Positions 435 to 6,608 of a DNA stretch of 7,307 bases are shown in pieces. The stretch lies in the IMG/VR virus record IMGVR_UViG_2619619129_000005, one strand, 5' to 3'. A program made the position numbers and the translations under genes. The first letter of the stretch is position 1; each line of letters begins with the position of its first letter. This DNA is from a virus (taxonomy: Duplodnaviria > Heunggongvirae > Uroviricota > Caudoviricetes). Under the pieces are notes generated by a model. It saw only the letters and a list, made by a program, of their open reading frames with translations. It was not told the origin of the DNA and made no database searches.

Positions 435-744
435 TATCGCACTACAACATGCTTAGGGCAAGTCACAAAGGAAGTCAGAAAGTAGTCGTAAGAACGGTGA
501 TCACTGTCCGCTTTGTGCCAGGAACGGACGTTACTACTAGCTCAAGCAAACCGCTCCTTAGCCCTTAATGAAGAATGGAGGTATTGGTATAAATAGGTGA
601 ATATCGGAATATCTCCAACAGGGAAAGGGACGTTTTTAGGGGATAACTATATTATCACCTAGTGGCCGTAAGAATATGCGCAGAGAGAACATATTTCACA
701 ACAGCCACCTTAGTTTTATGAAAAATCATAAACCGTAGGAATAT

Positions 745-1065: not shown

Positions 1066-1354
1066 GTAAAGAACAATCCTTATGTATTTGGTTAGTCTCT
1101 ATTCTACAAACTGAAATACAACATAAATTAAACCAATTGCTATTTATAGATTTGCATACAGCTATCGTATTGAATATTTAGAGAAATAAATCACACTAAC
1201 CGAAAAACAAGAACGTCAGGTGATCTGTTCCATATGATTCAGAACACATCGATGTAAACATGGATCCCTAACTTCCGCTTCTTGCTCTTAGCGGACATTA
1301 GCATAGGCTATTTACCATAACGCCTCATTACGCGCACCGCCCAGACTGACTCAG

Positions 1355-3641: not shown

Positions 3642-4067
3642 TCAATGTACTGCCACAGCATTTCCTGCCGGGCCACCACGGTTCATCTGATTGAAACCGG
3701 CGATTGCCACTGCGACAAAATCATCAGCGTCTCTCACCAGTCGCTCCCGCGTCTCCACCAGCTCCCGAAAATAAGCTGAACTGTGGCTGCGCATTCTGGC
3801 CACCAGCAAAGGTGGCATTGCCTTTTCGATCGCTGGTAACAACGCCTGAATTTTTTCAACTGCATCAGGGGTGTCTTTCTCTACCCAGCGGAAAATTTTC
3901 TGGGTATTGCGAGCCAGGGCTTCCGGATGGCTGTCGTCATACAGTTCCGGGAACGTCATTCCCAGCTCGAAATACGCTTTGGTAATTTTCGCAGCCGGTA
4001 CTTTTTCGCCGTCCGGATGCGCCCAGGCATTCATCGCCATGCGGATGTGTTCATGCTTGATTTTCAT
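3642..4067 (-). CDS. ydaT: YdaT-like protein (141 aa); family once proposed as a toxin, later reported to act as a CII-like regulator
   Basis: ORF MKIKHEHIRMAMNAWAHPDGEKVP... resembles Rac-prophage YdaT as I recall it; length and position (immediately after the Cro-like gene) match. Its ATG (4067..4065) overlaps the upstream gene stop (ATGA), indicating translational coupling. Confidence 0.65.
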   Translation of the reverse strand: MKIKHEHIRMAMNAWAHPDGEKVPAAKITKAYFELGMTFPELYDDSHPEALARNTQKIFRWVEKDTPDAVEKIQALLPAIEKAMPPLLVARMRSHSSAYFRELVETRERLVRDADDFVAVAIAGFNQMNRGGPAGNAVAVH

Positions 4068-4279
4068 GAATCATTCTTTCCTTCGTTCGAGGTGCTATCC
4101 TGCTTCTTGTAAAGTTCTGGGTTGTATTTCAATTCACCGTTAGTAATTTCATCCAGTTCCATTGCGCGAAGTTTGGGAATAACTGCTTTCCACCGCACAA
4201 CAGCCACATGTGAAATTCCAAGAGCCTCAGCTACTAGTCGCTTTTTTTTGAAATAGCGCAGAACATCATCTTTGAACAT
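4064..4279 (-). CDS. Cro-like HTH protein of the YdaS/DicC family (71 aa)
   Basis: ORF MFKDDVLRYFKKKRLVAEALGISHVAVVRWKAVIPKLRAMELDEITNGELKYNPELYKK... with HTH signature (LGISHVAVVRW). ATG at 4279..4277 with AGGAG (complement of 4286..4290) 6 nt upstream. Divergent from the repressor gene. Confidence 0.8.
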   Translation of the reverse strand: MFKDDVLRYFKKKRLVAEALGISHVAVVRWKAVIPKLRAMELDEITNGELKYNPELYKKQDSTSNEGKNDS

Positions 4280-4370
4280 AAAACTCTCCTGTTATTCCGA
4301 GCAGGAGGGTAACAATAGTTACATAGCAATGTCAACCATAGCAACATCACTTGGTAGTAACATTGGTTAC
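4280..4370. promoter_or_regulatory. Divergent OR-like region with two GTAAC-N4-GTTAC operator palindromes
   Basis: GTAAC-AATA-GTTAC at 4309..4322 and GTAAC-ATTG-GTTAC at 4357..4370, centres 48 bp apart. TTGACA on the minus strand (complement of 4330..4335) is a candidate -35 for the Cro-side promoter. The 91-bp gap between divergent start codons is typical of an immunity switch. Confidence 0.55.
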
Positions 4371-5045
4371 ATGAAAAACACTATCAGCGAACGTATTCGG
4401 AATCGTCGAAAAGACGTTGGATTAACCCAACAGCAGGTTGCGAAAGCAATCGGCATATCTCGTGTATCCGTAACAAAATGGGAAAATGGCTCTTCAAAAC
4501 CTGACGGTGAGAATTTGCATCTACTGTCAAAATTGCTTTCCAAATCTCCTGAATGGATTCTTTATGGAAAGGACGGTCACGATAAAACCGATGATCTGCG
4601 TCTGAATCAGTATCTTTACATTAGTGACAACATCGCCCGGTTGCCCGTTTTAACGTGGGAACAGGCTGGTTATTGGGATATGAGTTGTCCAGTAACCGAG
4701 ATTCCTGGCATTAAGAATTGGGTTGATGTCATGACAAAAACCGCTGAAAACTCTTTTTTATTGCATGTTGAGGGAGATGCGATGACAAACTCTAACGGCC
4801 TCCCAACCATCCCCGATGGATCTACCGTGCTGATCACACCATGCTCAAGTAACATTAGAGAACTGGTGGGAAAAATAATCTTAATCCAATTGGAAGGAAC
4901 GCCAAACGTAACACTAAAAAAAGTTGCGATTGACGGACCAAACATCTATCTGTTGTCACTGAATCCGCTTTACAAACCCATCGAACTGAATGGTGGTTAC
5001 ACCATTAAAGGTAAAGTTTCACAAATACATCAATACTTAGACTGA
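4371..5045 (+). CDS. dicA: Prophage repressor: DicA-like HTH N-domain plus LexA/CI-type S24 C-domain, with Ala at the catalytic Ser position
   Basis: N-terminus MKNTISERIRNRRKDVGLTQQQVAKAIGISRVSVTKWENG resembles DicA as I recall it. C-domain LLHVEGDAMTNSNG...TLKKVA...LNPLYKPIELNGGYTIKGKV aligns by eye with lambda CI (VEGNSMTAPTG...FKKL...LNPQYPMI...VVGKV). Start placed at ATG 4371 so both operators stay intergenic (leaderless, like lambda cI from PRM). Alternative starts: ATG 4329 and TTG 4272 (ORF-track start). The symbol is by family resemblance only; K-12 DicA is shorter and lacks the C-domain. Confidence 0.75.
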   Translation: MKNTISERIRNRRKDVGLTQQQVAKAIGISRVSVTKWENGSSKPDGENLHLLSKLLSKSPEWILYGKDGHDKTDDLRLNQYLYISDNIARLPVLTWEQAGYWDMSCPVTEIPGIKNWVDVMTKTAENSFLLHVEGDAMTNSNGLPTIPDGSTVLITPCSSNIRELVGKIILIQLEGTPNVTLKKVAIDGPNIYLLSLNPLYKPIELNGGYTIKGKVSQIHQYLD

Positions 5046-5050
5046 GTCAG

Positions 5051-5075
5051 AACCCGCATTCATTGCGGGTTTTTC
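5051..5075 (+). terminator. Rho-independent terminator after the repressor gene
   Basis: Stem AACCCGCA (5051..5058) / TGCGGGTT (5064..5071), 5-nt loop, followed by TTTTT (5070..5074). Starts 6 nt after the repressor stop (5043..5045). Confidence 0.7.
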
Positions 5076-5107
5076 ACGCTCTCAAATGTACCTTTTGCAA
5101 CATCGTA

Positions 5108-5136
5108 TTGACTCGAAAGGTAACTCTTGTTACCTT
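5108..5136 (+). promoter_or_regulatory. OL/PL-like promoter-operator for the rightward ydfA-dicB operon
   Basis: Perfect 20-bp palindrome AAGGTAAC-TCTT-GTTACCTT (5117..5136), sharing the GTAAC/GTTAC half-sites with the OR palindromes. TTGACT (5108..5113) is a candidate -35 and TACCTT (5131..5136, 17-bp spacer) a weak -10. Position after the repressor terminator mirrors lambda cI-tL-OL/PL. Confidence 0.55.
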
Positions 5137-5317
5137 AACGGCATGCCAACCCACCCCGCCCCACAGAATGCAGGGCAATACTTCGAGTTACCAGGCAGTG
5201 GTCAGGGGTTAAGTAGCCAGCCCGAGGCGTAAGAACATGACGGCAGGGTTCAACTTTAATAACTATGCAGCAGGTTTTTGTTCCGCTACCCCGGCGTTAA
5301 GGGGAAATGAGGTCAGC

Positions 5318-5473
5318 ATGGATACTATCGATCTTGGCAACAGCGAATCTCTGGTATGTGGCGTGTTCCCCAACCAGGACGGTACGTTCACCGCGATGAC
5401 GTATACCAAAAGCAAAACGTTTAAAACCGAAAATGGTGCCCGTCGCTGGCTGGAAAGAAACTCAGGTGAGTGA
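5318..5473 (+). CDS. ydfA: Small prophage protein (51 aa), YdfA/YdaF-like
   Basis: ATG 5318 with GAGGT (5309..5313) upstream; product MDTIDLGNSESLVCGVFPNQDGTFTAMTYTKSKTFKTENGARRWLERNSGE. Size and position (first gene after the OL-like operator) match K-12 ydfA. The ORF-track version starts earlier at 5237 (78 aa), an alternative. Symbol is by size and synteny, not verified by alignment. Confidence 0.6.
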   Translation: MDTIDLGNSESLVCGVFPNQDGTFTAMTYTKSKTFKTENGARRWLERNSGE

Positions 5474-6192: not shown

Positions 6193-6250
6193 TTTCTGGT
6201 GACGTTTGGCGGTATCAGTTTTACTCCGTGACTGCTCTGCCGCCCTTTTT
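6193..6250 (+). ncRNA. dicF: DicF-like small RNA (about 53 nt) with intrinsic terminator
   Basis: TTTCTGGTGACGTTTGGCGGTATCAGTTTTACTCCGTGACTGCTCTGCCGCCC (6193..6245) followed by TTTTT (6246..6250). GGCGG (6209..6213) pairs with CCGCC (6240..6244). The sequence agrees with my recollection of K-12 DicF and sits in the long gap between ydfC and dicB. Exact 5' end is uncertain because it is made by processing. Confidence 0.6.
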
Positions 6251-6419
6251 AAAGTGAATTTTGTGATGCGGTGAATGCGGCTAAGCGCACGCGGAACAGT
6301 TAAAACCAAAAACAGTGTTATGGGTGGATTCTCTGTATCCGACGTTAATTGTTAACTGGTTAACGTCACCTGGAGGCACCAGGCACTGCATCACAAAATT
6401 CATTGTTGAGGACGCGATA

Positions 6420-6608
6420 ATGAAAACGTTATTACCAAACGTTAATACGTCTGAAGGTTGTTTTGAAATTGGTGTCACTATCAGTAACCCTGTATTTACT
6501 GAAGATGCCATTAACAAGAGAAAACAAGAACGGGAGCTATTAAATAAAATATGCATTGTTTCAATGCTGGCTCGTTTACGTCTAATGCCAAAAGGATGTG
6601 CACAATGA
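6420..6608 (+). CDS. dicB: Cell-division inhibitor DicB (62 aa)
   Basis: Product MKTLLPNVNTSEGCFEIGVTISNPVFTEDAINKRKQERELLNKICIVSMLARLRLMPKGCAQ matches DicB as I recall it. ATG 6420 with GAGGA (6408..6412) 7 nt upstream. The ORF-track version (from 6315) includes an unlikely 5' extension. Confidence 0.85.
   Translation: MKTLLPNVNTSEGCFEIGVTISNPVFTEDAINKRKQERELLNKICIVSMLARLRLMPKGCAQ

Follow-up and report, generated by a model that had tools for sequence, protein, structure and literature searches.

We conclude that the three GTAAC-N4-GTTAC palindromes in this stretch of DNA (the window, 7307 bp) are almost certainly the prophage's own repressor operators. Taken as a whole, the region reads as the immunity region of a Qin/Rac-like lambdoid Escherichia coli prophage built on the P22/phage 21 plan, with three OR and two OL operators, a reading to which we assign a probability of about 85%. 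It displays the hallmarks of P22-type immunity, i.e., divergent HTH-S24 repressor and cro genes, an operator shared between OR and OL, and operators lying over early promoter elements. It is thus an ordinary genetic switch with an operator sequence that we did not find described, and involves no new mechanism. Our inferences from sequence concern binding and its cooperativity, the order in which the sites fill, where transcripts start, and whether the repressor promoter is activated. A literature search returned no description of operators, and no binding or transcript results, for this repressor and its family members, which is weak evidence since most subscription journals lay outside that search.

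Operator sites and gene layout

An exact search on both strands of the window returned only the sites starting at 4309, 4357, and 5120, all within 830 bp, matching the common half-sites and coordinates reported in an earlier note on this DNA; no exact match occurred in any of 200 dinucleotide-preserving shuffles. When up to two mismatches to the consensus were allowed, eight matches were observed vs. 2.2 expected. The sequence at 5117-5136 had been described as a perfect 20-mer: its 8-bp inverted arms (AAGGTAAC/GTTACCTT) stand, but its TCTT center is asymmetric, making it an 8-4-8 inverted repeat instead of a full palindrome. We did not adopt these 8-bp arms as the true half-site, as OL1 alone has them and the flanks of OR1 and OR3 are asymmetric; the conservation of AAAG beside the operators partly corresponds to the PR -10. 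A one-mismatch site at 521-534 was also discarded as a fourth operator, with ~0.2 such matches expected by chance and no counterpart in relatives.

Table 1 Predicted features of the immunity region, in window coordinates
Feature	Position	Strand	Description
cro-like gene	4064-4279	-	71 aa, P22_Cro family, Pfam PF14549, E = 2.9e-16
Shine-Dalgarno of cro-like gene	4286-4290	-	AGGAG; predicted anti-SD duplex -7.4 kcal/mol
Predicted PR (cro)	4306-4335	-	-35 TTGACA (4335..4330), 18-bp spacer, -10 TACCCT (4311..4306)
OR1	4309-4322		GTAACAATAGTTAC; exact consensus
OR2	4332-4345		TCAACCATAGCAAC; degenerate, 6/10 half-site positions
OR3	4357-4370		GTAACATTGGTTAC; exact consensus, abuts repressor ATG
Candidate PRM -10	4358-4363		TAACAT, inside OR3
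Repressor gene	4371-5045	+	224 aa; Pfam HTH_3 and Peptidase_S24
Repressor intrinsic terminator	5049-5078	+	10-bp stem (hairpin 5049-5073), then T run
OL2	5088-5101		GTACCTTTTGCAAC; degenerate, 7/10 positions
Predicted PL-like promoter (ydfA-dicF-dicB operon)	5108-5136	+	-35 TTGACT (5108-5113), 17-bp spacer, -10 TACCTT (5131-5136)
OL1	5117-5136		Core 5120-5133 = GTAACTCTTGTTAC; arms AAGGTAAC-TCTT-GTTACCTT
DUF1391/ydfA-like gene	5318-5473		
DicF RNA	6194-6245		
DicB gene	6420-6608		

The placement of these sites relative to genes agrees with what had been proposed. Pfam assignments confirm that the OR pair lies between divergent cro-like and repressor genes, whose start codons are separated by 91 bp, and the two clear OR sites are indeed 48 bp apart with the second abutting ATG 4371, a spacing kept in relatives. 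Similarly, hairpin and gene calls agree that OL lies downstream of the repressor terminator and upstream of the ydfA-dicB operon. The terminator hairpin, between the repressor stop and OL1, was missed by a simple terminator scan of positions 4000-5400 and recovered by RNA folding (-18 kcal/mol, z = -5.7), and a hairpin followed by a T run occurs at the equivalent place in relatives.

Two degenerate sites complete the proposed array. A third OR site had been predicted within 4323-4356, and a degenerate match occurs there at a position kept in relatives (OR2, a putative operator), with spacings of 23 bp to OR1 and 25 bp to OR3. For comparison, the annotated OR sites of phage 21 have centers 22.5 and 25.5 bp apart, the last abutting the c2 ATG. 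The count of a single OL site was too low: a second, degenerate site (OL2) lies 32 bp upstream of OL1, and a site is found 31-35 bp upstream of OL1 in relatives. OR2 and OL2 share the variant half-site GCAAC. In most relatives, the OR2 position reads CAAACAACAGTTAC, matching 8/10 half-site positions; 49 of the 120 IMG/VR loci have this sequence, and further variants in these loci also end in GTTAC or GGTAC. The OL2 equivalent shows no or one mismatch in several relatives (e.g., GTAACAATAGTTAC in locus L113 and GTAACAATAGGTAC in locus L006) and is more degenerate in others.

Conservation and specificity of the operators

We evaluated the conservation of this layout at several evolutionary distances. 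Among 20 other species with repressors 42-53% identical to that of the window, 19 displayed sites with 0-1 mismatch 48 bp apart, the second abutting an ATG, the exception (L010) having two mismatches in OR1. One to three sites with 0-1 mismatch followed the repressor stop in 18 of these species (none in L002 and L019), and cro homologs started 30-32 bp from OR1 in 18/20. The same layout was observed in intermediate relatives and in the functional phages ZF40 and AH07, and scanning the whole genomes of these two phages found exact operators confined to OR, in line with the site specificity that the earlier note had put up for checking. The layout also recurred in 118/120 IMG/VR contigs: OR1 was kept in 116/119 loci, and 110 of the 113 loci with a complete gene had at least one OL site with 0-1 mismatch, mostly 40-100 bp past the stop, these loci representing 66 distinct proteins. 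Across 28 loci, half-site positions were conserved at 97% for OR1 and 99% for OR3, compared to 51-61% for the surrounding intergenic DNA, and among 80 near-identical E. coli copies OR1 was unchanged in 79 and OR3 in all 80.

Of 5426 complete E. coli genomes, 702 (~13%) have the window's immunity region. Immunity-specific DNA stops ~5 bp past OL1, and the sequence from ~5141 on is common to 3702/5426 E. coli genomes, including the K-12 Rac prophage downstream of racR. In a megablast of the phage collection, matches were confined to the 100 bp of shared sequence that follow OL, and no sequenced isolated phage in it had this exact immunity region.

Comparison with heteroimmune relatives supports operator specificity tracking the predicted recognition helix. 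This helix, SRVSVTKWE, is invariant across the repressor family and goes with GTAAC. Relatives with NRVTVTGWE (mEp390 and vB_EcoM-720R4) have GTAGG-N4-CCTAC at the same positions and in the same 5-4-5 format, with outer sites 48 bp apart in mEp390 and a site abutting an ATG in both phages. Phage 21/P22-type repressors with helix SNVAISQWE are associated with TTAAG-N4-CTTAA, while the helix ISASAVTQWE pairs with GTAAG, again in the 5-4-5 format.

These patterns bear on three alternative readings. That the palindromes are functionless chance occurrences has a negligible probability: ten fixed bases would be expected ~5 times per 5-Mb genome, but no match arose in the 200 shuffles and the sites keep their position over >20 species. 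Binding of the palindromes by another protein than the S24 repressor, either the Cro-like protein only or a host factor, is very improbable. Cro binding is expected anyway, as a Cro of this type normally shares the repressor operators; however, the sites accompany the repressor gene from species to species and next to differing downstream operons, the half-site changes together with the repressor recognition helix, OL adjoins the repressor gene and is remote from cro, and the immunity-specific DNA block ends just past OL1. A more serious contender, although not the one we favor, is an effectively bipartite OR, a variant compatible with the main model in which OR1 and OR3 alone are functional, with plain PR repression at OR1, negative autoregulation at OR3, and no cooperative OR1-OR2 pair. 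The sequence at 4332-4345 would then be kept merely for the PR -35 and as a decayed OR2 remnant. Indeed, a 6/10 match has a ~2% chance of occurring at one fixed position, the left half of OR2 (TCAAC) is the complement of the PR -35, the right half drifts in the window lineage (GCAAC, ACAAC, GTGAC, GTAAC, GGTAC), and OR2 changed in 5/80 near-identical copies vs. 1/80 for OR1 and 0/80 for OR3. Yet the PR -35 leaves unexplained the perfect GTTAC right half found in most relatives, the three operators annotated in phage 21 have this 23/25-bp spacing too, and OL2, the other weak site, carries the same GCAAC variant half-site.

Promoters and the repressor start codon

The putative operators overlap predicted promoter elements: OR1 lies within the PR spacer and overlaps the PR -10, the left half of OR2 overlaps the PR -35, and OL1 spans the spacer and -10 of the predicted PL. 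At the threshold of a strict consensus scan, no sigma-70 promoter was detected in 4000-5400, and the -10 elements of PR, PL, and PRM match the consensus at 3/6, 3/6, and 4/6 positions, respectively. With a rough sigma-70 weight matrix, whose base frequencies are textbook values, PR (12.2 bits) and PL (12.1 bits) were the best promoter-like configurations in their regions, with 31 of the 72,720 configurations in the window scoring ≥8 bits. Relatives display TTGCTA-17-TACCTT at the PR equivalent and, in the same register, TTGACC-17-TACATT at the PL equivalent. Transcription from PR is predicted to begin near 4299 (minus strand). The start predicted for PL, near 5143, falls at the mosaic boundary (near 5141), and no Rfam family was found for the conserved leader downstream of PL. 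The candidate PRM has a poor -35 (ACCATA), comes to ~2 bits overall by hand calculation with the same matrix, and is absent from the top-scoring configurations listed. Its TAACAT hexamer is invariant and ends 7 nt upstream of the repressor ATG; the near-invariant or invariant A6 and T7 of the OR3 spacer are consistent with a -10 hexamer.

Under the P22/phage 21-like model, the HTH-S24 repressor, and presumably the P22-type Cro too, would bind as dimers to 14-bp operators, each with an A/T-rich 4-bp center flanked by the 5-bp half-sites GTAAC and GTTAC; the true contact region may reach ~18 bp. Repressor at OR1 (and OR2) and at OL1 (and OL2) would occlude RNA polymerase at PR and PL, so that cro, the replication genes, and the DicF and DicB division inhibitors stay unexpressed. 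OR3 would cover the -10 and start of the repressor promoter, and its filling, by high repressor or by Cro, would shut off repressor synthesis. In lambda, OR3 ends ~11 bp before the ATG and OR2, near -42, activates PRM. Here OR3 touches the ATG and the center of OR2 would be near -32.5, not ~-42, if the transcript starts at the ATG; we thus did not adopt lambda-style PRM activation from OR2, and the lambda precedent is no sufficient basis for assuming positive autoregulation here.

The repressor start at ATG 4371, on which the leaderless message suggested in the earlier note depends, is the only conserved start among relatives. Across 27 loci, no Shine-Dalgarno was found upstream of the repressor ATG, whereas cro genes have one (mean anti-SD pairing of -3.2 kcal/mol for repressor starts vs. 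-8.6 kcal/mol for cro). Because this conserved ATG lacks a Shine-Dalgarno, a leaderless repressor mRNA is plausible: the message would most likely begin at or within a few nt of the A of ATG 4371 and be translated without a Shine-Dalgarno. Leaderless repressor mRNAs have been identified by 5' RACE for paaR2 of CP-933P (PMC8630535) and PY54 cI (PMC4488713), and both studies describe lambda cI mRNA as leaderless too. Alternatively, the repressor might start at ATG 4329 (238 aa) or TTG 4272, in which case OR3 would be intragenic and conserved by protein constraint (as the residues NIGY). RefSeq/PGAP and most database entries annotate the 238-aa form, which is found on at least 1000 contigs, compared to 140 contigs for the 224-aa form. 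The reading frame also continues without a stop through the operator, and several database proteins contain NIGY. However, in 11/20 distant relatives the frame offers no start codon ahead of the ATG that adjoins the operator, with TAG at the position of ATG 4329 in 10 of these 11, and annotations of most family members give 218-220 aa, beginning with MKTE. In addition, the 14 extra residues vary freely except over OR3 or the -35, ATG 4329 is merely the complement of the PR -35 plus one base (TTGACAT), and no Shine-Dalgarno precedes 4329 either. We consider such an upstream start very unlikely.

Catalytic residues and relationship to known switches

The repressor retains the Ala-Gly cleavage site (EQAGYW) and the catalytic Lys (TLKKV), but alignment to the lambda CI structure (3bdn) places GDAM opposite lambda GNSM, i.e., the catalytic Ser is replaced by Ala (Ala137, codon GCG, 4779-4781). 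The Ser-Lys dyad of LexA/CI-type self-cleaving repressors is therefore incomplete, the nucleophile being Ala. This Ala codon is GCG in 80/80 near-identical E. coli copies and GCA in one 70%-identical relative, while most relatives display GESM or GDSM at this motif. Since relatives with Ser (TCA, TCG) fall between the GCG copies and the GCA relative, Ser may have been lost twice, in two independent events. Given the Ala at this position, the repressor is probably insensitive to the SOS response, and lambda-style SOS induction would not apply. More tentatively, and with less than even confidence, we suggest that the operators belong to a domesticated, SOS-unresponsive switch, in which a consensus-strength autoregulatory OR3 and a probably leaderless mRNA fix the repressor level.

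The lambda OR/OL logic initially ascribed to this region holds insofar as repeated operators are predicted at both early promoters, but P22/phage 21, rather than lambda, is the nearest model. The window repressor is a homolog of P22/phage 21 repressors (36% identity), its N-terminal domain matching PDB 1adr, 2r1j, and 3jxb, and its Cro belongs to the same P22_Cro Pfam family. The predicted architecture is also shared: three OR sites (the middle one putative here) over 48 bp center to center with 23/25-bp spacing, a repressor-proximal site abutting the ATG, OL after the repressor terminator, and a 5-4-5 operator core with a central spacer. In contrast, the half-site is GTAAC here vs. TTAAG and the helix SRVSVTKWE here vs. 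SNVAISQWE, so that, judging from these sequences, the window is an immunity specificity distinct from P22/phage 21. Other differences include the much weaker OR2 and OL2 matches, the ydfA-dicF-dicB operon downstream in place of a visible N/nut antitermination module, and the Ala at the catalytic Ser. With lambda, the window shares divergent cI/cro genes, an operator set repeated at both lytic promoters, an OR1-OR3 distance of ~47-48 bp, a repressor start codon without Shine-Dalgarno, and an S24 C-terminal domain (3bdn match, E = 1e-13), but lambda operators are 17 bp long and unrelated in sequence, and the Cro of lambda folds differently.

Two cryptic prophage systems of E. coli offer further points of comparison. 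The paaR2/ydaS/ydaT region of CP-933P (E. coli O157:H7) is likewise part of a cryptic lambdoid prophage: the repressor gene diverges from a Cro-like gene, after which comes a YdaT-family gene, and operators lie at PR, PRM, and a PL-like promoter (PMC8630535). PaaR2 is a protein of ~15 kDa (His-tagged form), for which the paper does not mention an S24 domain; the associated repeats form four 18-bp palindromes with the consensus GTTTAGTAA, and PaaR2 heads a toxin-antitoxin operon (PMC8630535). The Qin DicA/DicC system has the same ydfA, ydfB, ydfC, dicF, and dicB operon under a repressor-proximal promoter (bioRxiv 10.1101/2023.04.14.536235; PMC3441716), and DicA operators have been described at the dicA-dicC intergenic region (dicCp) and at dicBp (bioRxiv 10.1101/2023.04.14.536235). 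However, DicA is 135 aa long and lacks S24, vs. 224 aa with S24 for the window repressor, K-12 dicBp is induced via the Rem antirepressor, and K-12 matches only window positions 5141-5240, at Rac and not at Qin. We thus found neither orthology to DicA nor immunity DNA shared with K-12 Qin.

Taken together, this analysis specifies an operator, GTAAC-N4-GTTAC (or G[G/T]TAC), and likely promoters for an immunity type present in 702/5426 complete E. coli genomes. Pectobacterium, Pantoea, Klebsiella, Yersinia, Edwardsiella, and other genera have phages and prophages with the same operator type. It adds a clear case to the series of helix changes and half-site changes in P22-like repressors, which aids the prediction of immunity groups from sequence, and indicates that the RefSeq product of 238 aa should be 224 aa, i.e., a systematic start-codon error. 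In E. coli, the module would control the dicF-dicB operon, whose regulation has so far been studied only for the unrelated DicA immunity. If the switch is indeed domesticated and SOS-unresponsive, this division-inhibitor operon would remain silent despite DNA damage in ~13% of complete E. coli genomes, and its derepression would need an antirepressor or another signal.

Probable operator sites and their conservation

Exact matches to GTAAC-N4-GTTAC number three in the 7307-bp window (OR1, OR3 and OL1) and zero across 200 dinucleotide-preserving shuffles of it, which bears out the three palindromes reported in the earlier note. Allowing ≤2 mismatches, 8 sites were observed vs 2.2 expected. We compared this layout across repressor loci of 20 other species with 42–53% protein identity, including Yersinia, Buttiauxella, Kosakonia, Erwinia, Edwardsiella, Arsenophonus and Celerinatantimonas. 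Two sites with 0–1 mismatch lie exactly 48 bp apart in 19 of these species, the second abutting the repressor ATG (one exception, 3 nt away), and the remaining locus, L010, carries an OR1 with two mismatches. One to three additional 0–1-mismatch sites follow the repressor terminator in 18/20 species; at this threshold, distant loci L002 and L019 have none.

The layout is also kept in intermediate relatives (66–89% identity) and in two temperate phages available as isolates, Pectobacterium ZF40 and Pantoea AH07. Searching IMG/VR with the 18-mer “OR3 + ATGA” yielded at least 120 stretches; among the matches listed, a repressor homologue lies downstream in 118/120 (at least 66 distinct proteins), OR1 48 bp upstream in 116/119, and at least one OL site, mostly 40–100 bp past the stop, in 110/113 complete-gene loci. 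Across 28 non-identical loci, half-site columns are 97–99% conserved, compared to 51% for the cro 5′ UTR and 61% for between-site DNA. Site specificity, for which a genome-wide pattern search had been suggested, was assessed in the complete AH07 and ZF40 genomes: exact sites are confined to OR, and sites with ≤1 mismatch cluster at OR and OL, with 3–4 scattered elsewhere vs 1–1.4 expected.

Features of the immunity region and related operators (window positions unless a locus is named)
Feature	Position	Strand	Sequence	Remarks
P22_Cro-family gene	4064-4279	-		then YdaT-family gene
PR (predicted)	-35 4335..4330; -10 4311..4306	-	TTGACA, 18-bp spacer, TACCCT	12.2 bits
OR1	4309-4322		GTAACAATAGTTAC	exact match
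OR2 (candidate)	4332-4345		TCAACCATAGCAAC	6/10 positions match; phage 21 register
OR3	4357-4370		GTAACATTGGTTAC	exact match
Repressor gene, HTH_3 + Peptidase_S24	4371-5045	+
Repressor terminator	5049-5078			strong hairpin + T run (fold)
OL2 (candidate)	5088-5101		GTACCTTTTGCAAC	7/10 positions match; 32 bp upstream of OL1
PL (predicted)	-35 5108-5113; -10 5131-5136	+	TTGACT, 17-bp spacer, TACCTT	12.1 bits
OL1	core 5120-5133; 8-bp arms 5117-5136		GTAACTCTTGTTAC	exact match
ydfA-like gene (DUF1391)	past repressor hairpin, before DicF RNA
DicF RNA	6194-6245			then dicB
mEp390 operators	L105 (mEp390 locus) 1130-1195		GTAGG-N4-CCTAC	outer OR sites 48 bp apart
vB_EcoM-720R4 operators	L109 (vB_EcoM-720R4 locus) 530-595		GTAGG-N4-CCTAC

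A degenerate third OR site had been suspected between the two clear ones. The phage 21 record annotates three OR operators with centres 22.5 and 25.5 bp apart, the last abutting the c2 ATG, and applying this register to the window yields the candidate OR2. At this exact position most relatives carry CAAACAACAGTTAC (8/10 match), while the window itself reaches only 6/10. Because the left half occupies the PR −35 position, its conservation would be partly due to another cause, and whether OR2 is a working operator in this prophage is uncertain; the −35 leaves unexplained the GTTAC right half conserved in relatives. The earlier count of one OL site was too low: the degenerate OL2 has counterparts 31–35 bp upstream of OL1 in relatives, with 0–1 mismatch in several of them and weaker matches in the rest. 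In the phage 21 record itself (L110, OL657228.1, 586–1236), the label “OR2” is given to two operators and the repressor CDS, which comes with a “ribosome_binding_site” feature, is annotated from the internal ATG at 664; the P22-type N-terminus MNTQLMGERIR starts at 586, directly past the last operator.

Probable recognition by the repressor and predicted promoters

Among the computational arguments for recognition of these sites by the repressor, the strongest is the co-variation between half-site and predicted recognition helix, i.e., SRVSVTKWE, invariant across the repressor family. Relatives with NRVTVTGWE (mEp390 and vB_EcoM-720R4; 38–41% identity) keep the 5-4-5 format with different half-sites, one site abutting an ATG in each and related sites past the terminator. 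SNVAISQWE repressors (phage 21/P22-type) are associated with TTAAG-N4-CTTAA, and the ISASAVTQWE repressor of a Morganella phage with GTAAG-N4-CTTAC. Across these four groups, the half-site thus follows the helix within a constant architecture. The vB_EcoM-720R4 locus has two adjacent ATGs, of which the annotation uses the second.

A strict consensus scan found no promoter; the PR and PL candidates come from a rough weight-matrix scan, in which 31 of 72,720 window configurations reached ≥8 bits. Each candidate carries a perfect operator over its spacer and −10, a register retained in relatives. The natural reading is that the repressor would occlude predicted PR and PL.

Downstream of PL, we observed a conserved leader (window 5141–5240; relatives, e.g., L104 [AH07] 1950–2050, L006 3299–3400 and L107 1300–1400). 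It consists in relatives of CATCAACAGCGAAC-AGGCAGGACGCCCA-CGAAGTAGCC, a hairpin whose 5–6 bp stem varies with compensatory changes around a conserved loop (GGCGTATGAAG), and GGATGATTCGC. It also adjoins a repressor whose specificity differs (L107), the window's variant occurs in 3702/5426 E. coli genomes at up to 6 places per genome, and it matched no Rfam family. This leader is a possible RNA element, perhaps nut-like, in the early-left transcript.

Repressor start codon and proposed autoregulation

RefSeq/PGAP and most databases start the repressor at ATG 4329 (238 aa), which would place OR3 inside the gene. The comparative data argue against this start: 11/20 relatives lack any start codon in frame before the ATG that abuts the operator, 10 of these having TAG at the 4329 position; ATG 4329 is the complement of the PR −35 plus one base (TTGACAT); and the 14 extra residues (4329–4370, overlapping OR2, OR3 and the PR −35) are variable save where DNA signals overlap. 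No Shine-Dalgarno precedes ATG 4371 or its equivalents in any of 27 loci, with a mean anti-SD pairing of −3.2 kcal/mol vs −8.6 for neighbouring cro genes. The TAG codons and missing Shine-Dalgarno indicate ATG 4371 (224 aa) as the true start.

A TAACAT hexamer inside OR3 (4358–4363), ending 7 nt before the A of ATG 4371, is conserved including spacer bases that the repressor need not specify, and its position would fit a transcript starting at the start codon. Such transcripts have been demonstrated experimentally for paaR2 (PMC8630535) and PY54 cI (PMC4488713), and both papers remark that lambda cI mRNA is leaderless. The PRM candidate has a poor −35 and scores ~2 bits overall (hand calculation, same matrix), below every configuration listed. 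For a start at 4371 the OR2 centre would lie near −32.5, whereas activation of PRM by lambda CI takes place from −42. We therefore infer negative autoregulation at OR3, without carrying positive autoregulation over from lambda.

Induction, prophage context and relation to known systems

Alignable to lambda CI through the S24 domain, the repressor retains the Ala-Gly cleavage site (EQAGYW) and Lys (TLKKV), with Ala replacing the catalytic Ser at codon 137 (GDAM vs lambda GNSM; GCG at 4779–4781). Ala is found in 80/80 near-identical IMG/VR copies and in relatives at 89% and 70% identity (GCG, GCA), Ser in relatives at 88% and 66% (TCA, TCG), and GESM or GDSM in the remaining family. Because close relatives mix both residues, this substitution may have occurred repeatedly. 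LexA S119A is a precedent for loss of self-cleavage, and by this analogy the repressor probably resists cleavage and does not sense SOS, so that SOS induction of the lambda kind is unlikely for this prophage.

Gene and domain calls, the hairpin and DicF RNA support the gene context described earlier; the window belongs to a Qin/Rac-like lambdoid E. coli prophage. The 4064–5240 stretch is complete, at 98–99.9% identity, in 702/5426 complete E. coli genomes. Immunity-specific DNA stops ~5 bp past OL1, and sequence from ~5141 onward, near the predicted PL start, is common to 3702 genomes, among them K-12, where it lies in Rac past racR; the boundary is the mosaic joint classically seen in lambdoid immunity regions.

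The left part of the prophage appears degraded, with a putative relB antitoxin at 158–397 (−), spotted by eye in translation, and overlapping ORFs at 1423–1885 that may be an IS remnant or degraded gene. Between relB and the next gene, GGAACGGACGTTAC (521–534) fits the operator pattern with one mismatch; it lacks a counterpart in relatives, the window should hold ~0.2 matches of this kind at random, and we rejected it as a probable chance match. Directly 3′ of DicF and overlapping the dicB start, 6243–6452 gives a sub-threshold Rfam match to the sRNA STnc100 (33.8 bits vs gathering score 47), with a comparable weak match in AH07 (L104 2378–2493).

The P22/phage 21 immunity region is homologous and works alike, but operator specificity here differs; the K-12 Qin DicA/DicC immunity is different, whereas the downstream operon it controls is the same. 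We found no description of the GTAAC-N4-GTTAC operator in the searchable literature. Overall, this is an immunity system of a well-known type with its own operator specificity, mechanistically unsurprising, and its operator description is of use for annotation and for studies of dicBF regulation.
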